64,000 nucleotides of DNA from assembly GCA_003971905.1 (NCBI GenBank), contig RSEE01000113.1, positions 62,001-126,000 of the forward strand, in the 5' to 3' direction. Shown piece after piece: positions 16,550 through 36,176 of the stretch (the first letter of the stretch is position 1; each line of letters begins with the position of its first letter). The position numbers and the translations under genes are program-made. The notes beneath the pieces were generated by a model. The model saw only the letters and a program-made list of their open reading frames with translations. It did no database searches and was not told where the DNA came from. This stretch comes from Moniliella sp. 'wahieum'. Taxonomy: Eukaryota.

Positions 16550-17524
16550 TGCATGTGCGTTATGGCGTTGTTTCGATGGTGTGTTTCTTATGATAAGCAA
16601 AGCGCTCTCGTATTGCTGTCTTCTCGCAATCCCATGCACCACGTGCATCATGCGCCAATGTGTTGCGTCTTCTCACACAACTATATATTTCGCTGTTCGG
16701 GGTAATCGGTAACTGTTGGAGCGAGCGCTAATGCGCGAACAAGACAGGGAAGCCCCCCACAGTGGCAGTATATAGTGACCTAGTGACCGGAGTGACCCTG
16801 CGCACGCGAGCAAGATCATCCCAAAAAAAACAGTGTGGTCCCCGGCCATATAGTTATTACCTAGCGTGGGAACAGCCTAGTACGCTTGCCCCGTGCCAGT
16901 CCTTTTAATTTTATCCCCTTCATTCCTGCTCCCCTCTCGCTCTCCATCCATCTCCCCCAGGAGGTGAGTCTCACTCATCCAAGGGACGTTACCGTCTCTT
17001 GGATCTTATCAGTCTCAAGTGAAACATGGGGTGTTTTGTACCTTTTTGTACCCCAGCTGCTCGTCCCAGCTCGCTCGCTCCCGGGCCAGAGGAGGAGGGG
17101 GCGGGTCGTGCGTCCTTCCTGACTCAGTGCCCCCCCTACGCGCCACAACCATATGGGCTTAATGCATCCGCGGTACTTCGCAGCACAGCTGTTCTATACA
17201 CACGTCGCTAAAAAGGATCTAACTCTTTTATGTCGACACAACTCGCTCCCGGCCGAGGCGCACACGTGGATGCACTTATCCATGTGGTGGAACACTTCGT
17301 CTTAAGATGTCGCACCTCCGCCTTCTCTTCCGATCCTGGTAGTGGAGCGGCTCCGTAACTGCAAGCATTTTGTCGTTGTGCATATGGTTCCTGTCCCTGT
17401 CCGTTATCCTCTCTGCGCCGCACCATCAGTCGCTTCCGTGAGTGTCTTTATATACCTTTTGAGCAACTGCGGGAGAGAATATTCTCTTTCCCACCACCGC
17501 CACCACCCCTTCACTTCTTTTCTT

Positions 17525-20300
17525 ATGTCCATGTCTTACGGTGACAAGGAGGATCGGGCCAAGGAGGCCGTCATTGACGATCAACGGCTCCAGGAACCTC
17601 TACCCTACGAGGAAGACCATGAAGCTGCGTTTGACGGCATTGAACGCGACATTCGTCGCGAAATCACGGACGGTCGTCTGAACGACCCCAACCTTGATCC
17701 TGCCTTGTTGCGTGAGGCTGACTGGGCACTGAACAAGGGGGACGAGAAGGCGGAACTACGCCTGGAGGATGTAATTGAAGATGATTCTATTTACCCTGAG
17801 GTCCGCGCCGCCGTGAGCAATGTCGACGACTACAGCATGAAGGCTAATACCTTCCGTGCCTGGTTCATGGGCATAATTGCCTGCACTGTGCTCAGTGGCA
17901 TCAACATGTACTTCTCAGCTCAAGTATGTTCCACTCCGTGATTGCGTGGTTTTAGGGATGAGAGGCGTATGTCTGATCTGATTGTGTTACTCTGTACAGT
18001 GGCCCCAAATCACATTTCCATCGATTGCAGTGCAACTGTTTGCCTACCCCATTGGTGTAGCCATGGCCAAGATCCCTTACCCGCGCCACTGGCCGCTGGC
18101 GACCTGGTTCAATCCAGGTCCCTTTAACATTAAAGAGCACACCATGATCTCGGTGATGGCCACTGTCGGGGTGGGTTCAGCCTATAGTACCGACATCTTT
18201 ATCACCCAGCATGCCTTTTACGGTCAACATCTCACAGCAGGGTACATGATCCTACTTACTCTGTCGACGCAGATGATCGGTTTCTCGTACGCCGGGTGTT
18301 GTCGCCAGATCCTTGTTTGGCCCGCGTCGATGATCTGGCCAGTGAATCTAATCAACACAGCCTTCCTTACCTCGATGCACGAGAACAAAAAGGTTGGTAG
18401 CTTCCGTGGCTGGTCTCGGTTCAAGATGTTTTCCGTTGCGGCAGCTGTATTTTTTGTGTGGGAAGTTGTTCCCAACTACCTCTTTACCGGTTTGTCCGTC
18501 TTTTCTTGGCCCGCCTGGATCGCACCCAAGAACAAGGGGGTGAACCTCGTGTTTGGTGGCACGGGCGGGATCGGGTTCAACTTTATCTCTCTCGACTGGA
18601 TGCAGGTCTCCAGTGCCCTTGGCTCGCCCATCTATGTTCCCTGGTTTGCGATCGCCAATACGATTGTAGGGTATATGCTGATGATTGGCTTGGTTGCTCC
18701 CATAATATGGGCCACCAACACTAGGTACACTGGCTACCTCACTTTTAGCAACTCGGGAATCTACGACCGCTTTGGCCAAGAGTATAGTGTCGACTACGTG
18801 GTGAACGAGAACCTTGAATTGGACACGGCCAAGTACGAATCCTACTCGAAGGAGTATCTGAGCGCAGTACGTTATACTCCTTAATTCTTCTTCTCTCACA
18901 TGGCATTAGATGCCCACCCCTGTCGCCAAATGCTGACGGACCATATGTGATTGGGGGGGAAAAAGACGTTCCTTATTAGCTACTGCCTCAGCTTTGCTGT
19001 CATCACTGCTACATTAAGCCAGGTGGGATTGTACTATTGGAAAGACATTGTGCGGCAATGCCGTCGATCGCTCCACGAGGAGCCTGACATCCACGCTCGT
19101 CTCATGTCGCGGTACAAGGAAGTACCGTATTGGTGGTACGCAGCCATCTTTGGCATCTCGTTTGGTTTGGCGATCCCGTCGATTTATGTGTACAAGACAC
19201 AGCTGCCCATTTGGATGTTTATTGTGGCGCTACTGATGAGTGCCGTGTACACTGTTCCGATTGGCATCATCACTGCCATCACGTCCAACACCCCGGGCCT
19301 CAACGTGATTAGTGAGTTGATTGTAGGGTATGCCATTCCCGGTCGGCCGGTTGCTATGATGATCTTCAAAACGTTTGGTTACATGACCATGGCGCAAGCA
19401 GTGACCTTTGTCCAGGACCTCAAGTTGGGTCATTACATGAAGGTACCTCCCCGGGACATGTTCTGGGCTCAGATCGTCTCTACTGTATGGGCTTGCATTG
19501 TCCAAGTTGGCGTCACTGCTTTCCTCTTCAAATCTACCCACAACCTTTGCGGCGTCAACCCCAACGAGCCAATCCGTCCTGCCCACTTTACCTGCCAATA
19601 CCAAAAGACGTTTAGCTCAAGTGCAATCGTGTTCGGTTTGATTGGCCCAGGTACGTGAAGAGATCAGACACACCGTGTGTGTGGGCCTATAAAGGGCTTG
19701 CTGAACCATTGGAGAAAACTGACTGAGACGTGTGTGTGGCGGTATGGATTGCTTGTCCCTATCCGAAACAGGCGCCGTTTTGCTGTGGGGAAAACATATG
19801 GGGCGCTCAACATCATGTTCATCATTGGTGCAGTGATTCCGATCCCGACGTGGCTGATTGCCAAAAAGTACCCCAACTCGTGGGTGCGTCTGATCAATTG
19901 GCCTGTCTTTTTCGGTGCGACGGGCATGATGCCACCGGCAACGGGGATCAACTTTACGTCCTGGTTCATTGTTGGCTGGTTCTTCCAGTACTTCCTCCGT
20001 CGCCACTACTTTGAATTTTGGAGCGACTATAATTACGTCTTGTCGGCCGGATTTGACGTGGGCAGTTCGTTGGTCTCGTTCCTGCTGAGCGTGTGTCTCG
20101 AGGTGCCCGACACGCCCAAACTCGCTACAGACAATGTGTTTGCCGGCGATAATCTCTGGTGGGGGAACAAGGTGGAGAGCAACAATTTACAAGGCGCTCT
20201 CGAGCTCGTCCACAAGCCCGTTCCGCCACTCGGATTTGCTCCTGCGCCCAACGGGAAGTGGCTGCCCAATCCGATCCCACCCTCTTCTGGTTCGTCTTGA
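17525..20300 (+). CDS. OPT-family oligopeptide transporter
   Basis: SIYPEVRAAV, NTFRAW, NPGPFNIKEH, EPDIHARLMSRYKEVP and KLGHYMKVPPR signatures. Introns 17924-17999, 18867-18966 and ~19651-19771 (last junction is 1 nt out of phase). Confidence 0.95.
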
Positions 20301-25260: not shown

Positions 25261-26950
25261 ATGTCCTCCACTCAACAGATCATACGCAACACGGCCTTGC
25301 GTGTCGCTGCCATCCCAGAGGGCAATCACTTTACTGCTCTGATCGGCGGCCCTGTACCGGCCTCCTATCCCATATTCGTCCGATTCGATGGCAAAACATT
25401 CACGTGCGTGGACTCTATTCTCTTTACCAGTCTTGGGCATCCTCTTGCCCTCACAAGGAGAGGAACTGACTAGATTTGCGCTCATAAAGGCGAGGAGAGA
25501 TAATCCGTCTCTCTCGGCAACTTGCCTATGCGTTTGTCCACCGCCTCCATCTCCACCCCGGCGACAAGGTTGCCCTCTTAAGCCCCAACTCGGTATGGGT
25601 ACCGATCGTTTTCTATGCTTGTTTTATTGCCCGCATCGTCATCGTTCCTCTCAGTTACTCGCTCACGGCCGAGGAGATTGCTCCTCTTCTCGCCGACTCC
25701 CAGCCCAAGATTCTGCTTTCTGGTATTGCCACCCTTGCGACCGCCCAACAGGCCGGCGGTGACCTGCCGCTTTGGGTTGTAGATGATTCGGATGAGTATG
25801 CGAGACGAGACGTACGCACGCTCCTGACCGAGGAGGAAATGGACCCCCTTCCCCTTTCCGACCCAATGGAACCGGCTATGATTGGGTACAGCTCAGGAAC
25901 AACGGGCAAGAGCAAAGGTGCCGTACTGACCTATCGAAACTTGAACGCCCAGTTGGTACAGTGCGTTTCCGCTTTCGCTTCTTATTGTCGTCAGGGGGAT
26001 GTGACCGTGGCGTTTTTACCCCTTGGTCATGTGTTTGGAATGGTCCAGTATGTGCTCTATACATTCCATGTGGGCATCACAACCGTCATCCACCCGCGTT
26101 TTGAACTAGAACGGTTGCTCGATGCGGTACAACGCTGGCGGGTGCGCTACCTCTTTTCCCCGCCGCCCGTCCTGGTGCTCTGGCCAAGCATCCAATGGTG
26201 GACAACTACGATCTCAGTTCACTAGAAGGCTTACTTGTCGGCGCTGCTCCGCTCAGCGAAAGTTTAACCACTGCAGTTCAAACCCGTCTTCCTCGTGTGA
26301 CGATATCCCAAGGCGCGGGGATGACAGAGTCCACTTCCATTGTGACGATAAGCATGCCCGACACGTACACACAAGCACCAGGCTCAGCGGGGAGGGTAGC
26401 TCCCTTAAGTGAGATCCGCCTCATCAATGACAAAGGAGAGGATGTGGCCTTTACCCACAACCCCGATACAGGACGGAGCTATCCGGGAGAAATTTGGATC
26501 CGGGCCCCGGTAGTGTTTGCTGGGTACCTCAACAACCCTTCTGCCACCAAGGATACGATGGAAGGGGATTGGCTCAAGTCAGGCGACGTGGGCGAGCATC
26601 GCGACGGTTTCATCTGGTATGTCGATCGCCAGAAAGAGCTAATCAAGCACAAAGGGTTCCAAGTGGCTCCGTCGGAACTCGAAGCGTTGCTGCTTCAGCA
26701 CCCGGATCTGAGCGATGCAGCGGTAGTGGGCGTGTACTCGGAAGAAGAAGCCACTGAGCTACCGAGAGCGTTTGTCGTTCCGCGCCACAAGGGGGTGAAC
26801 GTTAGCGAGGTGAGGGCCTCGGTGGATTCCCGCGTTAGCTCACACAAACGCCTACGGGGTGGGGTGTATCTTGTTGCCTCGATTCCCAAATCGCCCAGTG
26901 GGAAGATCCTGCGACGAATCTTGCGAGACCAGCCGCTACCCAAGCTGTGA
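25261..26950 (+). CDS. AMP-dependent acyl-CoA/4-coumarate-CoA-ligase-like enzyme, probably peroxisomal
   Basis: YSSGTTGKSKG, GEIWIRAP, WLKSGDVG, VDRQKELIKHKGFQVAPSELE, IPKSPSGKILRR and C-terminal PKL. Intron 25404-25489; frameshift at ~26180. A possible upstream exon (24993-25115, intron to 25218) would join in frame. Confidence 0.9.
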
Positions 26951-27384: not shown

Positions 27385-27577
27385 AGAAGAAATTACCGCA
27401 GCAGATTGAAGTTAGTGTGGTCGGTTGCCGAGCCCGATCACCCATTCCGCCCATCCCCGCACAAGGGCAGTCTGCCATCCTTCCCGGCCGCTCGCCCGTC
27501 CGGCCCCGGCGAATCTGCCCCCGTCAAAGCCAACACCCAAGTGCGCTGGTTTCATCCACCACAGCAAGTCAATCCCC

Positions 27578-28013
27578 ATGGTCCGCAACTCGTCCAACCC
27601 CGTGCACAAGGCTACTGTTGAGCGCTCCGGCCTCGCCTGGGGCATTGCCCGTGGCCACAAGACCGAGCGCCGCGTTGTCCCTGCCCGCCCGGCGGCGATG
27701 AAGGGCCACACGTCGCAACGCAACTTGATTGTCAAGTCGGTCATTCGCGAGGTGGCTGGCTTTGCGCCGTACGAGCGTCGCGCCATGGAGCTCCTGCGTA
27801 ACTCGAAGGTATGTCCACCGCCTTTTAACTGTCCCCTCTGGCTACTCCTTCCCTGTCCTGTCCCCTCCGGTTTCATGTACTGACTCGAGTGCGCTGTAGG
27901 ACAAGCGTGCGCGCAAGTTCATGAAGAAGCGCTTGGGCACCCTTAAGCGCGCCAAGGCTAAGGTCGAGGCGTTGCAGAACGTGATTGCCGAGCAGCGTCG
28001 TGCTGGGCACTAA
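27578..28013 (+). CDS. RPL36: 60S ribosomal protein L36 (eL36)
   Basis: Translates to ..IREVAGFAPYERRAMELLRNSK|DKRARKFMKKRLGTLKRAKAKVEALQNVIAEQRRAGH*. Intron 27809-27899 (GTATGT..TACTGAC..TAG). Confidence 0.98.
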
Positions 28014-29754
28014 GTGGCTCGTTCCCATTGTCCTGGTCGAGTTACTTCTCCCATCTAGGCTGTTTGTTAGCTTGAGCCCAGGTGCTCAAGCTTCCTCAAA
28101 ACCCTCATGGAAATCTATGAGACCCCCCTGCCTATTGGGGGATACAGGCGCTCAAACCCGATGGGGATGAGAATAGGTAGGGATGATGTAGTAGACATCG
28201 TGATCGGACGAAGAGACTAAAGCCCGCTACCAATTTTCGTCCGGTGGGTCGCTGAGGATGTGATAGAACTCGTCCGCCGTTGCTCATTGCTTAACGCTTA
28301 ATCATCCCCGGTTAACGCCCTACAGATCCGAGAACGAACGAGGCCTGGCCTGCGCTCCGAGTGGACGAGTAAAATGAGGTTCCTAGTGCACACTCGAACC
28401 CACAACGATCGTAGAGCTGAGTCGCTGCCTTGATATTACAGTACTTCTCCCCTATAGCCAATGCAATTGGCGCATCGAAGGGCGTGATGGGACGTATTGC
28501 AGAATGACGAATGGTATCTAAGTAGAGACGCTGTTGTGACTGATATAGTTCTGATATAGTTGACTTTCTAGTTTGAACGCCCTGAGCACCTGATCCTCTC
28601 AGTTCACGCCTGTGCCGCGCACATGAGTGAATCTGTTTTAACGGTCCTTTACCACTACAACGGCCTTGGAACCTCTCTTGTAACCCAGTGTATTGATCAC
28701 AGCGCCCATGGGATGATTAATGCTCACAGGTCTGGAGTATAGCGGGTACTTATCGGTCACTTCCCATGTGGGGGAGAGAACAGACAAAACACAGATGCAA
28801 TGACCTGAGTCGCATCTTTGACAAAGAATCCCCATCCCTCATTCAACAAGTCGATATAGCCTCCAACTGCTTCAGGTTGTACTATAAAATCCAGTTACCA
28901 GTAGTGTCGCTATAGCTACTTTGCGCATTCGTATCACTTACATTGACACATCATAAGACTGGGATAAAAAAACGCTTCGCCTACCGGGGGCTCGCTCATC
29001 CAGCGTATGCTGTGCTTGCTCGTGGCAACCCCCACCCAAGAAGTCAGTGAGTTGCCAGTGGGACCTTCTGGCACCCTCTTTGGGGCTTCAAAATCGGAAT
29101 GTAGCGCGCGTGGATACGCTGGGGTGTCGTTGTGCTATATATATAGACGGTAAGGATGTGAGCGATGCCTCGATGTACAATCTCCAACGAGACTGTCAGT
29201 AAACTTCCTCCAGCACTCGACCTTGAACATCGTGTTGGCCGTTTTGGAGGCATTAGCAGTGCCTGCCCGCCGTGATGAGAAACCAACGGCGGGAAAAGGA
29301 AGGCGCAGATTTTGAGTGCGGCTCCATCCGAGTATATGACACTGATGGGCGTTTTTGTCATATTCCGCTTGCTCCAACAACAGTCGAGATTTTGCCGTCA
29401 CTTCCCTCGTGTACCACACCTCCTATTACACGACCATGGCCTCCTTTGTACTCTTGCATTCGCAGTATAGTATTGGCAAAACTTGTAACTCCTGCGTCGT
29501 TCGAGCCGACACGGTGTCCTTTCCTTTCCTTGTGTTCCTTAACATTGGTCGCTATACCAAGTAACTCCCGCAAGATGAACGGTTCGCGGTTTAGGCGCAG
29601 CGTTTCCCTGCCCCAGCCTTAAGCTCTGTGAATGATATGGATGCAATACAGGGACAGAGAAAAGCTGTGCCTGCCACAGTCTGTGTATAAATGTTAGACA
29701 CTAGGCAAACCAGCGGCTAGAGTATTGTATGATTGCACCTTTTCCTTGCACGAG

Positions 29755-32115: not shown

Positions 32116-34128
32116 ATGTACGTTCGTTCTCCCTCTGCTTCCCTCTGCGGTAGATGTTGTCTCTCTTCGCTCTGCTCAGATATATACGGGGTGGGTACTG
32201 ACCATATAATTCCTTCCGTTTGCGCAGGCACTTGTGTACGCTCGCCCTCCCTCCCACACCGTCTCTATTTCCGGTGTGCCCTCTGCCTTGCTGCTAACCT
32301 TCACTTTCTCCCCCCCCTCTCCCACCCGCAGACGGAGCGATCGTGTTCAATCAGGACAAATCCACACGGCGTATACCCCTTCTGGCCGCCTGGGACCTGA
32401 GTCCCTTTAGCTGGTTGCACCGGCAGCAGATGCAAGACGAAATGACCACAGTTGCCAAGGTACGTTGCCTCTTGTTTGGGGTCTGTCTTTGTCTAACGTC
32501 TACCTGTATCTGCCCACGTAGGAACTGGCCGAAGAAACCAACCCCAACGACCAAGTCCAGTTCGAAGCCGACGACTTTCTTGCCCTCTCGTCCGGGCGAC
32601 CGGTGGAAGATGAGCTGTGTGGGGTGATACTGACGGACCACGAGTACCCTCGCGACGTGGCGATTGCTGTGCTGGACAAGATGCTGGAAGAAATGGCGGT
32701 GCGGGTGCCCAAGGCGCGGTACCAAGGTCTGATTGCGCAGCTGGTGACGCAAAAACCACAAGACTTCCTACCTGGTCGGGTGGGTGGAGCGCCCGTGTCG
32801 GCCCAGCCAGAAGGGGAGGAAGACTTACTCAGTGCGGCGGGCTGGGGCACGGGGTGCATGCCTCGCCTCGGCGACTCGGACAGCTTTGACCCGATGCAAG
32901 CGGAATTTGACCGTCGTCAGGCCGAAGGGCACCGTGTGGCATTGATGAGCCCATTTTGGTTGCCGCGTTGGAATTTCCTTCGGCGCAACAGTACTTGACG
33001 CGGTACCAAGACTTGGAATTGGCGCATGCTCTGGCGCGGGAACAGTTTGAGTCACGTACGACGGGTGGGAGGGCGTTTGGGATCGCCTCCGGTCGGTCGC
33101 CAAACAAGAAACGGTCATTTTTAGCCCGTCGTCGTGCTCGTGCGCCCCGCTCTGGTCCCGAACCTGACGTGCGTCCCATCTCCTTCCGCACAGCTCAGTA
33201 CCAATTCGCAATGGCCGCCAACCCTGCGACGATGCATGTACTGGCGCCTGCTGTGCCTGAAGACGCGCCCTTGCCACCCGCTCCTTCTCCTTCCCGCGTT
33301 CCGCCCGTCAACGCCTTCCCATCTTCTTCTACGGCCGGGCCGCAAACCGCATCGCCGCGACGGAGCACACTTTCTGGTCCCTCCCTCGCCCCGCCCGTAC
33401 CCATGCCGTCCGATGTGAACTTGCGTGCGCGCAGTGCGACGGTTGGGGTCGGCGGGCCCGCTCCACCCTCGACGCTAGGCTCGGCGCTGCAGAACGCGGT
33501 GCCAGCGCCGGACGAAACCGAGGGCCCAGGGGGGAGCAGTGTGAAAGCGAGTCTCAGTACGTTGCGTTCGATGAACACTGGGGCCCTGTTGTCTCCCACG
33601 CCCGATTCGGGCGTGACGAGCGAGACGGAGGAAGATAATGTACGTACGCCCACGCCGTTGGCTAGCTTGGGTGCGGTACGTGCTGCGCTCGCATCCGCCT
33701 CCTCACCTCGTTCGAACCGGGCACATCGATTGCAAGCTAAAGCGCTGGATCCCTTGGTGCAACCTGAAGAACCGGCGCCGATGATTCTGGAACGTCGGGT
33801 ACCCGTTCCGCCCATGCTGCAAGAGGAAGAGGAAGACGCCGAGGTGAGCAAGCCACGGTTGCCCACCCTCCTCCCTTCGACTGGGAGGAACAAGTACCAT
33901 ACTGCACCTCCTACGCGGGCTCCGAATACTCCTGTAACTCCGTCTTCCGCCACAACGATGGTCCGTTCCGAGCGCCGCAACTCGCAACTCTCCACCCTCA
34001 CGCCCCCGCGCCACGCTAACGAGCTGCCGGGCCGGCAGGTGCATGGGGCCAGTAGCTCGCTTCGGCTCGCTGTGCCCGGTCGCAAGCGGGCAGCGACCGA
34101 GGGGGAGGAGAACTGTGTGGTGATGTAA
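32116..34128 (+). CDS. Ykt6-derived longin-domain protein with CaaX terminus but no recognisable R-SNARE motif
   Basis: Exons 32116-32117, 32228-32235, 32332-32459 and 32522-34128 (1-nt frameshift ~32955) give MHLYGAIVFNQ..WDLSPFSWLHRQQMQDEMTTVAKELAEET..LCGVILTDHEYPRDVAIAVLDKMLEE..LEFPSAQQYLTRYQD..ENCVVM*. Confidence 0.85.
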
Positions 34129-34657
34129 GATGCAACGAGGCCCCTCTCCCTCGCCTCGCTCCACCGTGGCACAATTGCCCATTGCTTTCTTTCTCTTGCC
34201 TTGTTTCTGCAGTAGGTTGGGCCTTCGTACCCTTCCATGCACACACTCCTTTCTCTTTTGGATCCCAAGCGCCGATTCTGGCGCTAAATTTGACCCAGTG
34301 CTTGTGACCAGTGGTCCGAGCTTCGATTAGCTTGGCCTGTTGCTTACCGCAACCACAACGGGTCGACTCCTACCGTACTTTTCCTAGGCTCATACCCTCC
34401 TTCGTTGCTTTACTTTTTTTGCCTCCATATGTGCACCCTGCTCCCTCTTGCCCGACTGGCTTTCCAGTTTGTACTTCCATGCGTTGTGCGTATGTGTACC
34501 TCCTATTCCATACTATCACCACCAGGTCTTGCCTTCCCCATAGCAGAATCGAGTCGTGTCTTGTGCGTCCTGTATCATTCCCACAATTACAGTTACACGT
34601 ACAGGTACACTACACGTACAGGTACACCTACACGTACAGGTACAGTTGCAGGTACAG

Positions 34658-36176
34658 TTACCGATCGACCTCGCCTGGATGCTGCACAATCCATGCGCGC
34701 TTGCGACTGAACGCATCGCTGTTGGGCACATCGACAAACAGTTTGCTGAACTGGAAAGTACCTTTCTCGTCCTGTGTTGTATTGTAGGTTGTAGGTTGTA
34801 GGTTGTAGCCGCGCGCGCGTTGGTACCAACATCCCCCAGAATCCGTCAGTCTCAGCATCCCACATTTCATAATCATGTTCACGTTCGTGCTCATGACCGC
34901 TTCGCCATGGGGACAACCAACGTACCTTGCGCAACTCTCCATGCACCTCTCCGCTCGTCCACGTTCCTGCCTCCTGAGGACGAGAGGCAGAGCGAACCAC
35001 GTCGCCGGCGCCACGAGTGAGACCTACAAAGCTAGCCATCGCACCTCCGATCCAGCGTCCCGGGACGTGGTACCAACTTTCCGCTGGCGGTGGGGCCAAG
35101 AGCGCTTCCTCAGCTTGCCATTGGGCCAAGGAAGCAGCATGTCGATTGGCCTTAGCTTGGAGGACTTGCAATCGCCGTGCCTCGTCGTCGGTGGTGGCGG
35201 CGACATGATCATCGTACCAGTCCAAGGTAGTGTCGTATGCATCGAGTAGTTTGTCCTTGGACCAACTCGCAGCTGCATACACTGCCGCTCGAGCCTGTTG
35301 GAAATACGTCAGATCTTCGTCCTTGTCACGAGCATGGACGATGAACCGGATGCGCATCACTTCTTCCCCCGAGGACGGGTCGGTGAGCAACTGGGACGTG
35401 ACGGACCGCACGCGGGATCGGCCAACGGGAAGCGACGTGTCGGGAGAAAGTTCAGTTTCGGACGTGTAAAAAAGTATACGGTTGAAGCAAGTACGAGTGG
35501 ACGGTTTTGCTCTGGGTGACCAACTTGCACGCATCCTCATACACCACCGTTGGGGAATTCTTCGCAAACAGTTCCGTCACGATCGCCCACGTTACCAGCG
35601 CGGTAAACAACGCGCCCGCTGTAATAAACGTGAACCGGGACGAATTCATCGCTCCCCGCACGACTTTTTGGCCAGGGGAGATATCGGACCAAGCTTGGCC
35701 GGCGCCCGTCCAACGGTCCAAGCGCGAAGGTCGTGTGTGCGGCATATTCGCCCCCGTACCACCCAACATGCCCATACTCATCGGCCCAGCTCCCGTTGCC
35801 GAGTTGCTCAATGCAGCCCGGGCCACGTCACGTAAAATCCGTTCACTTTAACCCTTTGATCACATCTCCACCCGATCGCGACCCCAGCTCCGCTGCCGAA
35901 CGCAAATCGGCAAGTACCCTGCGCTGCTCCGCTTCGAGCTGCGCACGCTCCCGACGAGCTTTCTCCGCCCGGTGCGTTCCGTTGGAGGGAGACTTGGCGT
36001 TGCGGTCATTGTGGTTGGGTTGGTGTGTTACTGTTGTCGTCGCTGGACAGGACGGCCTGGACGTGGGCAGAGGTGCGAAGGGGACGGGCCAGGAGCGGGG
36101 GCAAGGCCGAAACGCCAACGGCGCCCCTGAGCAGACGTGGCTGCAGATGGACCAGGACAGAGCGGCAGACAAGCAT
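34658..36176 (-). CDS. TIM21: Mitochondrial inner-membrane translocase subunit Tim21
   Basis: Presequence-like MLVCRSVLVHLQPRLLR, WSDISPGQKVVR, a TM segment followed by TELFAKNSPTVVYEDAC, MRIRFIVH, GEVHGELRK and FSKLFVDVP. Intron 34772-34925; several frameshifts. Confidence 0.85.

Follow-up and report, generated by a model that had tools for sequence, protein, structure and literature searches.

Few SNAREs are as strongly conserved as Ykt6. Phenylalanine 42 of its longin domain lies on the face that contacts the SNARE core, and mutation of this residue (F42A) shifts Ykt6 onto membranes (PMC7696345). On its own, the longin domain can bind HOPS Vps18, as described in one paper (PMC5937789), and the Ykt6 longin domain may have roles beyond auto-inhibition. 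At the C-terminus, the function of yeast Ykt6 requires the second Cys (PMC12001115), and a single prenyl group often requires a polybasic second signal (PMC9141697). A search of the openly accessible literature identified no non-SNARE longin family derived from Ykt6, and in the available text of a fungal SNARE survey, Ykt6 comes up three times and such a paralog does not (PMC2639358), in agreement with the original prediction, which knew of no described fungal equivalent. Here we analyze a locus that belongs to a real family of this kind, which is conserved, expanded and apparently not described before.

The locus occupies positions 32116-34128 on the forward strand of the window, that is, the whole stretch of 64,000 nucleotides that was analyzed (all coordinates below refer to this stretch and, unless stated otherwise, to this strand). 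In a model built from coordinates, it is a four-exon gene with three introns, all of which are GT..AG introns with branch sites. Exon 1 (32116-32117) comprises just the initial two bases of the start codon, which is split by intron 1 (32118-32227, branch site 32198) as in canonical YKT6 on contig C6. Exon 2 (32228-32235) is a microexon of 8 nt, as in canonical YKT6, and is part of an intronless fusion in two copies of the clade denoted IV below; it is followed by intron 2 (32236-32331, branch site 32294). Exon 3 (32332-32459, 128 nt) encodes longin strands 1-2, the aromatic loop, with W31/L32 corresponding to Ykt6 F30/F31, and the first half of helix A, and intron 3 (32460-32521, branch site 32493) is located at the same position as in canonical YKT6. 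Exon 4 (32522-34128), which is unbroken in the Logan relative P0001, encodes the remainder of the longin domain, an insertion, the linker, a disordered tail, the CaaX box and the stop codon. When spliced by these coordinates, the joined exons encode 581 amino acids, with an X at a single frameshift, and 371 residues follow YQD, close to the predicted total of ~580 and tail of ~370.

As assembled, the longin domain and the tail of this gene are in different frames, and the product is a protein of 204 amino acids with a stop at codon 205 and no CaaX box. The sister haplotype on C31, which is 95.6% identical to the window locus over 3517 bases, contains one extra base in the G run at 32936-32937, and its frame stays open, as does that of P0001. 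Given that the C31 haplotype is free of the 1-base deletion and that similar indels are rife in the assembly, the deletion is probably a read or assembly error. Across the paralogs, we counted 1-9 frameshifts per copy, 50 in total, and no in-frame stops in any of the 13 copies; a shared frameshift column was found in only 1 of the 6 haplotype pairs. Housekeeping genes are frame-broken likewise, namely YKT6 on C5 and C124, TIM21 on C31, and Pol1 on C68 and C142. We also considered a frame-restoring intron at 32832-32920 and rejected it, as the sequence there encodes protein and is conserved in C31, P0001 and P0005. Elsewhere in the window, the genes for an OPT oligopeptide transporter (17306-20297) and an AMP-binding enzyme (25488-26947) are each split over several frames, which is consistent with either assembly indel errors or introns. 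The neighboring gene TIM21 (34596-35847, reverse strand, approximate limits) served as a synteny marker only; short tandem repeats whose copy number differs between the two haplotypes are located in the 3' intergenic region at 34594-34660 and 34775-34810.

The longin domain anticipated in the original prediction was detected by Pfam PF13774 on exon 4 alone (32603-32713, profile positions 29-66 of 84, E = 3.5e-5), with a score of 24.1 bits that falls below the cut-off of 26.2. Comparison of the family profile with PDB retrieved seven sequences, of which five are Ykt6 (E from 2.4e-5 to 9.2e-4) and two are unrelated chance matches, and no Sec22, VAMP7 or other non-Ykt6 longin was found among the seven. 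In the ESM Atlas, only longin clusters were recovered, at 0.77. The residues retained from Ykt6 (window numbering) are W24/L26, the aromatic loop, G80-V81, D85-Y88-P89 of the DxxYP loop, F198-P199 through RYQD of the FPxxxxYLxRYQD linker, and three residues of the next helix; within the linker, YLTRYQD is encoded at 32992-33012, and its retention had been noted correctly. The insertion of ~50 amino acids past the last longin helix (32771-32935, approximate limits) is coding and is not an intron; it is common to clades I and II, P0001 and P0005 and is largely missing from clades III and IV. An AlphaFold2 model of P0001, built without exons 1-3, had a mean pLDDT of 44, below the level of use for a fold search.

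Assignment of F39 and F42 by the numbering of human 6j74, mapped to the window through the clade-IV exon, agrees with the original prediction that these positions are E and T. The F39 position is Glu in the window gene (32439-32441) and Ile in the canonical copy of the same genome, and the F42 position is Thr (32448-32450) and is Phe in 13 of the 13 canonical rows aligned. In the aligned paralog rows, F42 is substituted by T, S, A or L, which is followed by V, D or E. The residues F43, M44, T47, R51, R57, S59, Q61, H68 and H70 (window numbering), which are invariant in canonical Ykt6, are absent in every paralog row aligned; among these, the positions other than that of F42 presumably also belong to the surface in contact with the SNARE core. 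Earlier Ykt6 mutants include R50E/R56E. The replaced residues are located in helix A and strand C, and several of the new residues are invariant in the family, so that the closing face looks re-fixed as an acidic surface rather than merely decayed. The net charge of the 33-residue helix-A/strand-C segment ranges from -3 to -7 in 10 of 11 paralog copies, the eleventh being mis-modelled at the junction, compared to +1 or +2 in all 6 canonical sequences. The stem branch of the paralogs corresponds to 1.0-2.4 changes per column, and with the longin surface so heavily rewritten, the old partners may be gone.

The claim that the SNARE motif has been lost held for the motif itself, whereas a remnant of its first helix persists. 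We built a SNARE-tail HMM from 96 canonical Ykt6 tails, which scored 120, 83 and 60 bits on the three canonical loci used as positive controls; the best score of the 19 paralog proteins was -2.9 bits, and the best six-frame score in the paralog loci (115 targets) was 0.1 bits. Pfam Synaptobrevin produced 26 matches in the assembly, none of which were at the 13 paralog loci, and none were found in the 14 rows of alignment A3; the zero-layer Arg of the R-SNARE motif is missing in the paralogs. A hidden or downstream SNARE exon is rejected by the same Synaptobrevin scan and six-frame HMM search, in line with the expectation that no such exon is spliced in. The ~14-18 residues after YQD form a degenerate first SNARE-region helix, in which A214, Q221 and E223 are common with canonical Ykt6; this segment, followed by the family motif ESRTTGG, is encoded at 33013-33069, and in the low-confidence model of P0001 the remnant region is helical at 169-185.

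The tail of the window gene is of low complexity and contains 56% S/P/A/T/R, and across the family about 290-600 low-complexity residues carry short motifs in a fixed order, each of which is kept in 11-19 of 19 members. In the window gene, these are the basic-aromatic motif KKRSFL (33106-33123; 12 of 19 by the strict pattern), RRSTL, a PKA-type site (33358-33372; RRSTL or an RP[SNT]TL variant in 16 of 19), RARSATV, an RxRxxT basophilic-kinase site (33424-33444; 16 of 19), VKASL at the start of a conserved amphipathic segment (33541-33555; 16 of 19), and a conserved block at 33643-33798 with RTPTP (17 of 19), an xRAALA helix (19 of 19) and PMILERR (17 of 19). The basic cluster GRKR (34078-34089) lies upstream of the CaaX box, in a region where 18 of 19 members have at least 3 K/R; the net charge of the tails ranges from +4 to +25. 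In 13 tails, which are related so that the counts are not independent, we observed 39 [RK][RK]x[ST] sites vs. 17.7 in shuffled sequences and 31 RxRxx[ST] sites vs. 9.6, and 0 of 1000 shuffles reached the observed number in either case. In six window ORFs used as a control, which are not verified genes, the corresponding numbers were 8 vs. 7.2 expected for the PKA pattern and 8 vs. 4.1 for RxRxx[ST], an excess in the control as well for the latter but not for the former.

The window gene terminates in CVVM and a stop codon (34114-34128) with a single Cys, as originally described, and by direct reading its C-terminus is polar and CaaX-terminated, with no transmembrane helix. Farnesyltransferase prefers CaaX boxes that end in Met. 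Clean C-x-x-M-stop ends were found in 11 of the 13 genome copies, the other 2, both of clade IV, being disturbed; every copy with a readable end has one Cys in the last six residues, the tandem Cys being gone. The residues directly before the CaaX Cys are acidic and therefore weigh against a polybasic membrane signal.

Intact YKT6 with the SNARE motif and the CC tail is present separately in the same assembly, in three copies (C6, C124 and C5), as the original prediction required for a paralog. The canonical gene on C6 and the window gene have in common the split start codon, the 8-nt microexon and the third intron, and from these three common intron positions we conclude that YKT6 was duplicated at the DNA level to give rise to the paralog. 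Among the best 120 of 297 matches, the nearest annotated relatives of the canonical gene are Ustilaginomycotina proteins from Tilletiaria, Exobasidium and Ceraceosorus (73-74% identity), which marks the organism as a smut-related fungus, and two Logan proteins match it at 92-95% identity. The paralogs are monophyletic, with support of 100/100 in a first tree, from which five canonical rows were left out, and an SH-aLRT of 99 in a fuller tree; they group with Ykt6 as opposed to Sec22/VAMP7 (SH-aLRT 98, with a long-branch warning), and this grouping, the introns and the PDB matches concur in making the gene a Ykt6 paralog. The attachment point of the paralogs in the tree is without support, and constraining them with Ustilaginomycotina Ykt6 was not rejected (p-AU = 0.68); the W..F.W pattern of Ustilaginomycotina Ykt6 also occurs in the paralogs and points to an origin inside that group.

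Searching the assembly with the tail, we identified 13 copies, of which twelve pair up as haplotypes at about 93-96% identity and one is unpaired, for a total of 7 loci in four clades, and searches with P0009 and P0057 returned no further paralog loci in the assembly. The original prediction mentioned neither this family nor the frameshift of the window copy, the acidic closing face or the ordered tail motifs. Clade I consists of C113/C31 and the single C34; clade II of C117/C29 and C142/C68, the clade that adjoins DNA polymerase alpha; clade III of C51/C131 and C72/C123, with a common downstream gene that is Cef1-like by eye; and clade IV of C9/C18. Introns 1 and 2 are at the same places, with splice sites kept, in 11 of the 13 copies, and clade IV has lost both; the fused clade-IV copies confirm the spliced reading of the other genes. 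On C18, a 12-bp tandem repeat of 3.8 copies lies directly upstream of the clade-IV start codon (L031:3684-3728), with a similar arrangement on L030. At the C34 locus (L012, C34:344000-350000), a non-coding block corresponding to window 27555-28017 is kept (83% identical over 489 bases), the downstream neighbor differs, and the paralog is without ~70 tail residues that include an intact KKRSFL.

The contig counts, which for the housekeeping genes are lower bounds, were 2 for Rpb8, 2 for TIM21, 3 for Rpb5, 3 for YKT6, 4 for Pol1 and 6 for Sec22, compared to 13 for the paralog. The best reading of the sequence data appears to be one two-haplotype genome (Ustilaginomycotina) with older duplications, uneven loss and over-retention of the paralog family, although it may instead be a hybrid genome, and under either reading each haploid set contains at least 3 paralogs. 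The housekeeping contig counts (2-6 vs. 13) led us to reject a mixture of seven species with one copy each. The notion of exactly two subgenomes is weakened by three Sec22 pairs vs. one Rpb8 pair. Sec22 occurs as the haplotype pairs C39/C15, C35/C46 and C11/C28, the pairs being 85% and 78% identical to one another at the nucleotide level, and together with the one pair each of Rpb8 and TIM21 this amounts to uneven retention after genome-scale duplication.

Comparison of the window gene to C31 by the Nei-Gojobori method yielded dN/dS of 0.03 for the head (1 non-synonymous and 9 synonymous changes) and 0.23 for the tail (10 and 16), and comparison to C34 yielded 0.17 and 0.21, respectively. For the other pairs of duplicate loci, dN/dS was 0.08-0.19; the values for clade IV, 0.55-0.59, are confounded by many read errors, and dS between clades is near saturation. 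Judging from these substitution rates, the family is under purifying selection.

Conservation of the locus, on which the original prediction depended, extends to other assemblies. A profile search of 1.84 billion representatives produced 52 matches at E<=0.001, of which six bear the tail (P0001, P0004, P0005, P0006, P0009 and P0012); all six end in C-x-x-M with one Cys. Of the 46 head-only matches, 21 were inspected, and 21 of 21 were canonical Ykt6 or fragments. By common motifs, the Logan proteins P0001, P0005, P0004 and P0006 fall in clades I, II, III and IV, respectively, with moderate tree support at best. These Logan relatives begin at exon 4 and resemble genomic gene calls, and thus give no sign of expression. 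P0009 and P0012 are tail-only records of a fifth, more distant subfamily, for which a separate locus was not found in the assembly. Our searches yielded no annotated protein that combines a longin domain, a long tail and a CaaX box, although Ykt6 of Ustilago-related fungi, Tilletia and Malassezia was found. Among longer proteins, 6 candidates for the spliced form including exon 3 gave 0 matches at E<=1, which is a weak test; 209 pattern matches in JGI metagenomes gave 0 confirmed cases, and a plasmid search gave no match.

As the best explanation, we consider it slightly more probable than not that the window gene is a functional, lineage-restricted duplicate of YKT6 whose product would be a farnesylated, non-fusogenic, phospho-regulated trafficking adaptor. 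Farnesyltransferase would modify the single CaaX Cys and, as the longin groove would have neither F42 nor a SNARE core to close on, the lipid would be exposed and the protein would stay on the membrane; this standing membrane residence follows from the loss of the lipid groove, by analogy with the membrane-bound F42A Ykt6, and the 'constitutively open' state of the original prediction is likewise a supposition drawn from the lost residues. The basic clusters could be a second membrane signal. The requirement of yeast Ykt6 for its second Cys agrees with a loss of the canonical role in the paralog. The longin head, carried on a long flexible arm, would bind a partner via the acidic helix-A/strand-C face or the aromatic loop, most plausibly a tether or other trafficking factor, and basophilic kinases (PKA or other AGC kinases) would phosphorylate the conserved tail sites and thereby tune membrane or partner binding, such that the paralog would regulate or scaffold traffic and stay out of the SNARE bundle. 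A bolder proposal, which we put forward tentatively and consider doubtful, is that the members of the four-clade family, descended in one fungal lineage from an essential R-SNARE, would be farnesylated flexible tethers, in which the acidic head would capture a partner on a vesicle or other membrane, PKA/AGC phosphorylation would switch the tether on and off, and each clade would serve a different compartment. If so, a tether arm of 300-600 residues would span the gap between membranes, and the family would be a natural counterpart of the laboratory 'open' Ykt6 mutants and a new class of trafficking scaffold.

The family-wide new residues across helix A and strand C, the long stem branch, a protein that mostly consists of a disordered tail with motifs and basophilic sites, and the retention at 7 loci vs. 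1-3 for housekeeping genes could all be taken to indicate that the family has left vesicle traffic and that the longin head now serves as an all-purpose binding module of a signaling or polarity scaffold that is farnesylated and regulated by kinases; this we regard as unlikely, given that the family retains the aromatic loop, DxxYP loop and FPxxxxYLxRYQD linker of Ykt6 and that, in the available texts, known non-SNARE longins have not departed from the secretory pathway (PMC4861013). No copy whose end can be read has the acceptor Cys, so the paralog might also act as a decoy or inhibitor of Ykt6 handling that, by means of the retained aromatic loop and a farnesylated tail, occupies the second prenyltransferase, GGTase-III (Ecm9-Bet2), or other Ykt6 partners. 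In terms of the PTAR1/GGTase-III contact sites, which we took from section 7 of a review (PMC9141697), site 1 (F30/F31) and M1 and P86 of site 2 map to the kept W31, L32/V/I, M1 and P89, but half of site 2 is lost: none of the 11 paralog rows retains P133, only one has R134, and E84 is variable. The enzyme moreover binds closed Ykt6 (PMC9141697), and a decoy has no need for a conserved tail of 300-600 residues or for four clades, which makes this an improbable account.

A new fold-back, with the KKRSFL cluster and two amphipathic segments replacing the SNARE core on the acidic face and an auto-inhibition released by phosphorylation, would suit the complementary charges of the acidic helix-A/strand-C segment and the basic tail, and a similar arrangement has been modelled for phytolongins (PMC2779197); however, the hydrophobic groove residues that would hide the prenyl group are gone, and we give this the same slim chance as the decoy. 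Prediction of a complex between the head and the tail block, without alignments, gave a score of 0.00 vs. a mark of 0.34, a result that weighs neither for nor against such a contact. Finally, the deletion and the stop at codon 205 in the assembled sequence could be real, in which case the locus would encode a soluble longin of 204 residues or be a pseudogene. This is very improbable in view of the intact sequence of C31 at the deletion site, the near absence of shared frameshift columns among haplotype pairs, the similarly broken housekeeping genes and the low dN/dS downstream of the break.

Although the significance of these genes is limited by the narrow lineage, the retention of the longin domain and the lipid anchor with removal of the SNARE motif, at 7 loci under purifying selection, separates the partner-binding role of the longin domain from fusion, and the paralogs amount to a set of natural variants for testing longin partner binding. 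Compared to Ykt6 (PDB 6j74, 6j7f, 3kyq, 3bw6 and 1h8m), the paralogs have in common the longin head, the aromatic loop, the DxxYP loop, the RYQD linker, a CaaX box with a final Met, the positions of three introns and the W..F.W pattern. They differ in the absence of the SNARE motif and the zero-layer Arg, in having one Cys instead of two, in the replacement of the F42 patch and of the basic residues of helix A and strand C, in the ~50-residue insertion of the window copy, in a tail of 371 residues compared to 66-67 in Ykt6, and in occupying 7 loci compared to 2. With phytolongins, they share the combination of a longin domain and a membrane anchor and the replacement of the SNARE motif by unrelated sequence with an N-terminal trace, whereas phytolongins are derived from VAMP72, are restricted to land plants, and have a transmembrane helix and a central region of 60-90 amino acids (PMC2779197, PMC4861013). 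The likeness is one of design only, as the present family is derived from Ykt6, is fungal, and carries a CaaX box at the end of a tail of about 290-600 residues. Mammalian Sec22a and Sec22c and splice form b of VAMP7 are likewise R-SNARE longins without the SNARE part, but they come from other parent families, and neither a CaaX anchor nor a long motif-bearing tail is described for them in the available text of the paper that cites them (PMC2779197). By its domain content, the paralog family is a family of non-SNARE longins, that is, of longins without a SNARE motif, and not of Ykt6 R-SNAREs, from one of which it nevertheless descends; non-SNARE longins, so far traced in plants and mammals to parents of the VAMP7 and Sec22 type, are thereby extended to a prenyl-anchored Ykt6 parent in fungi.
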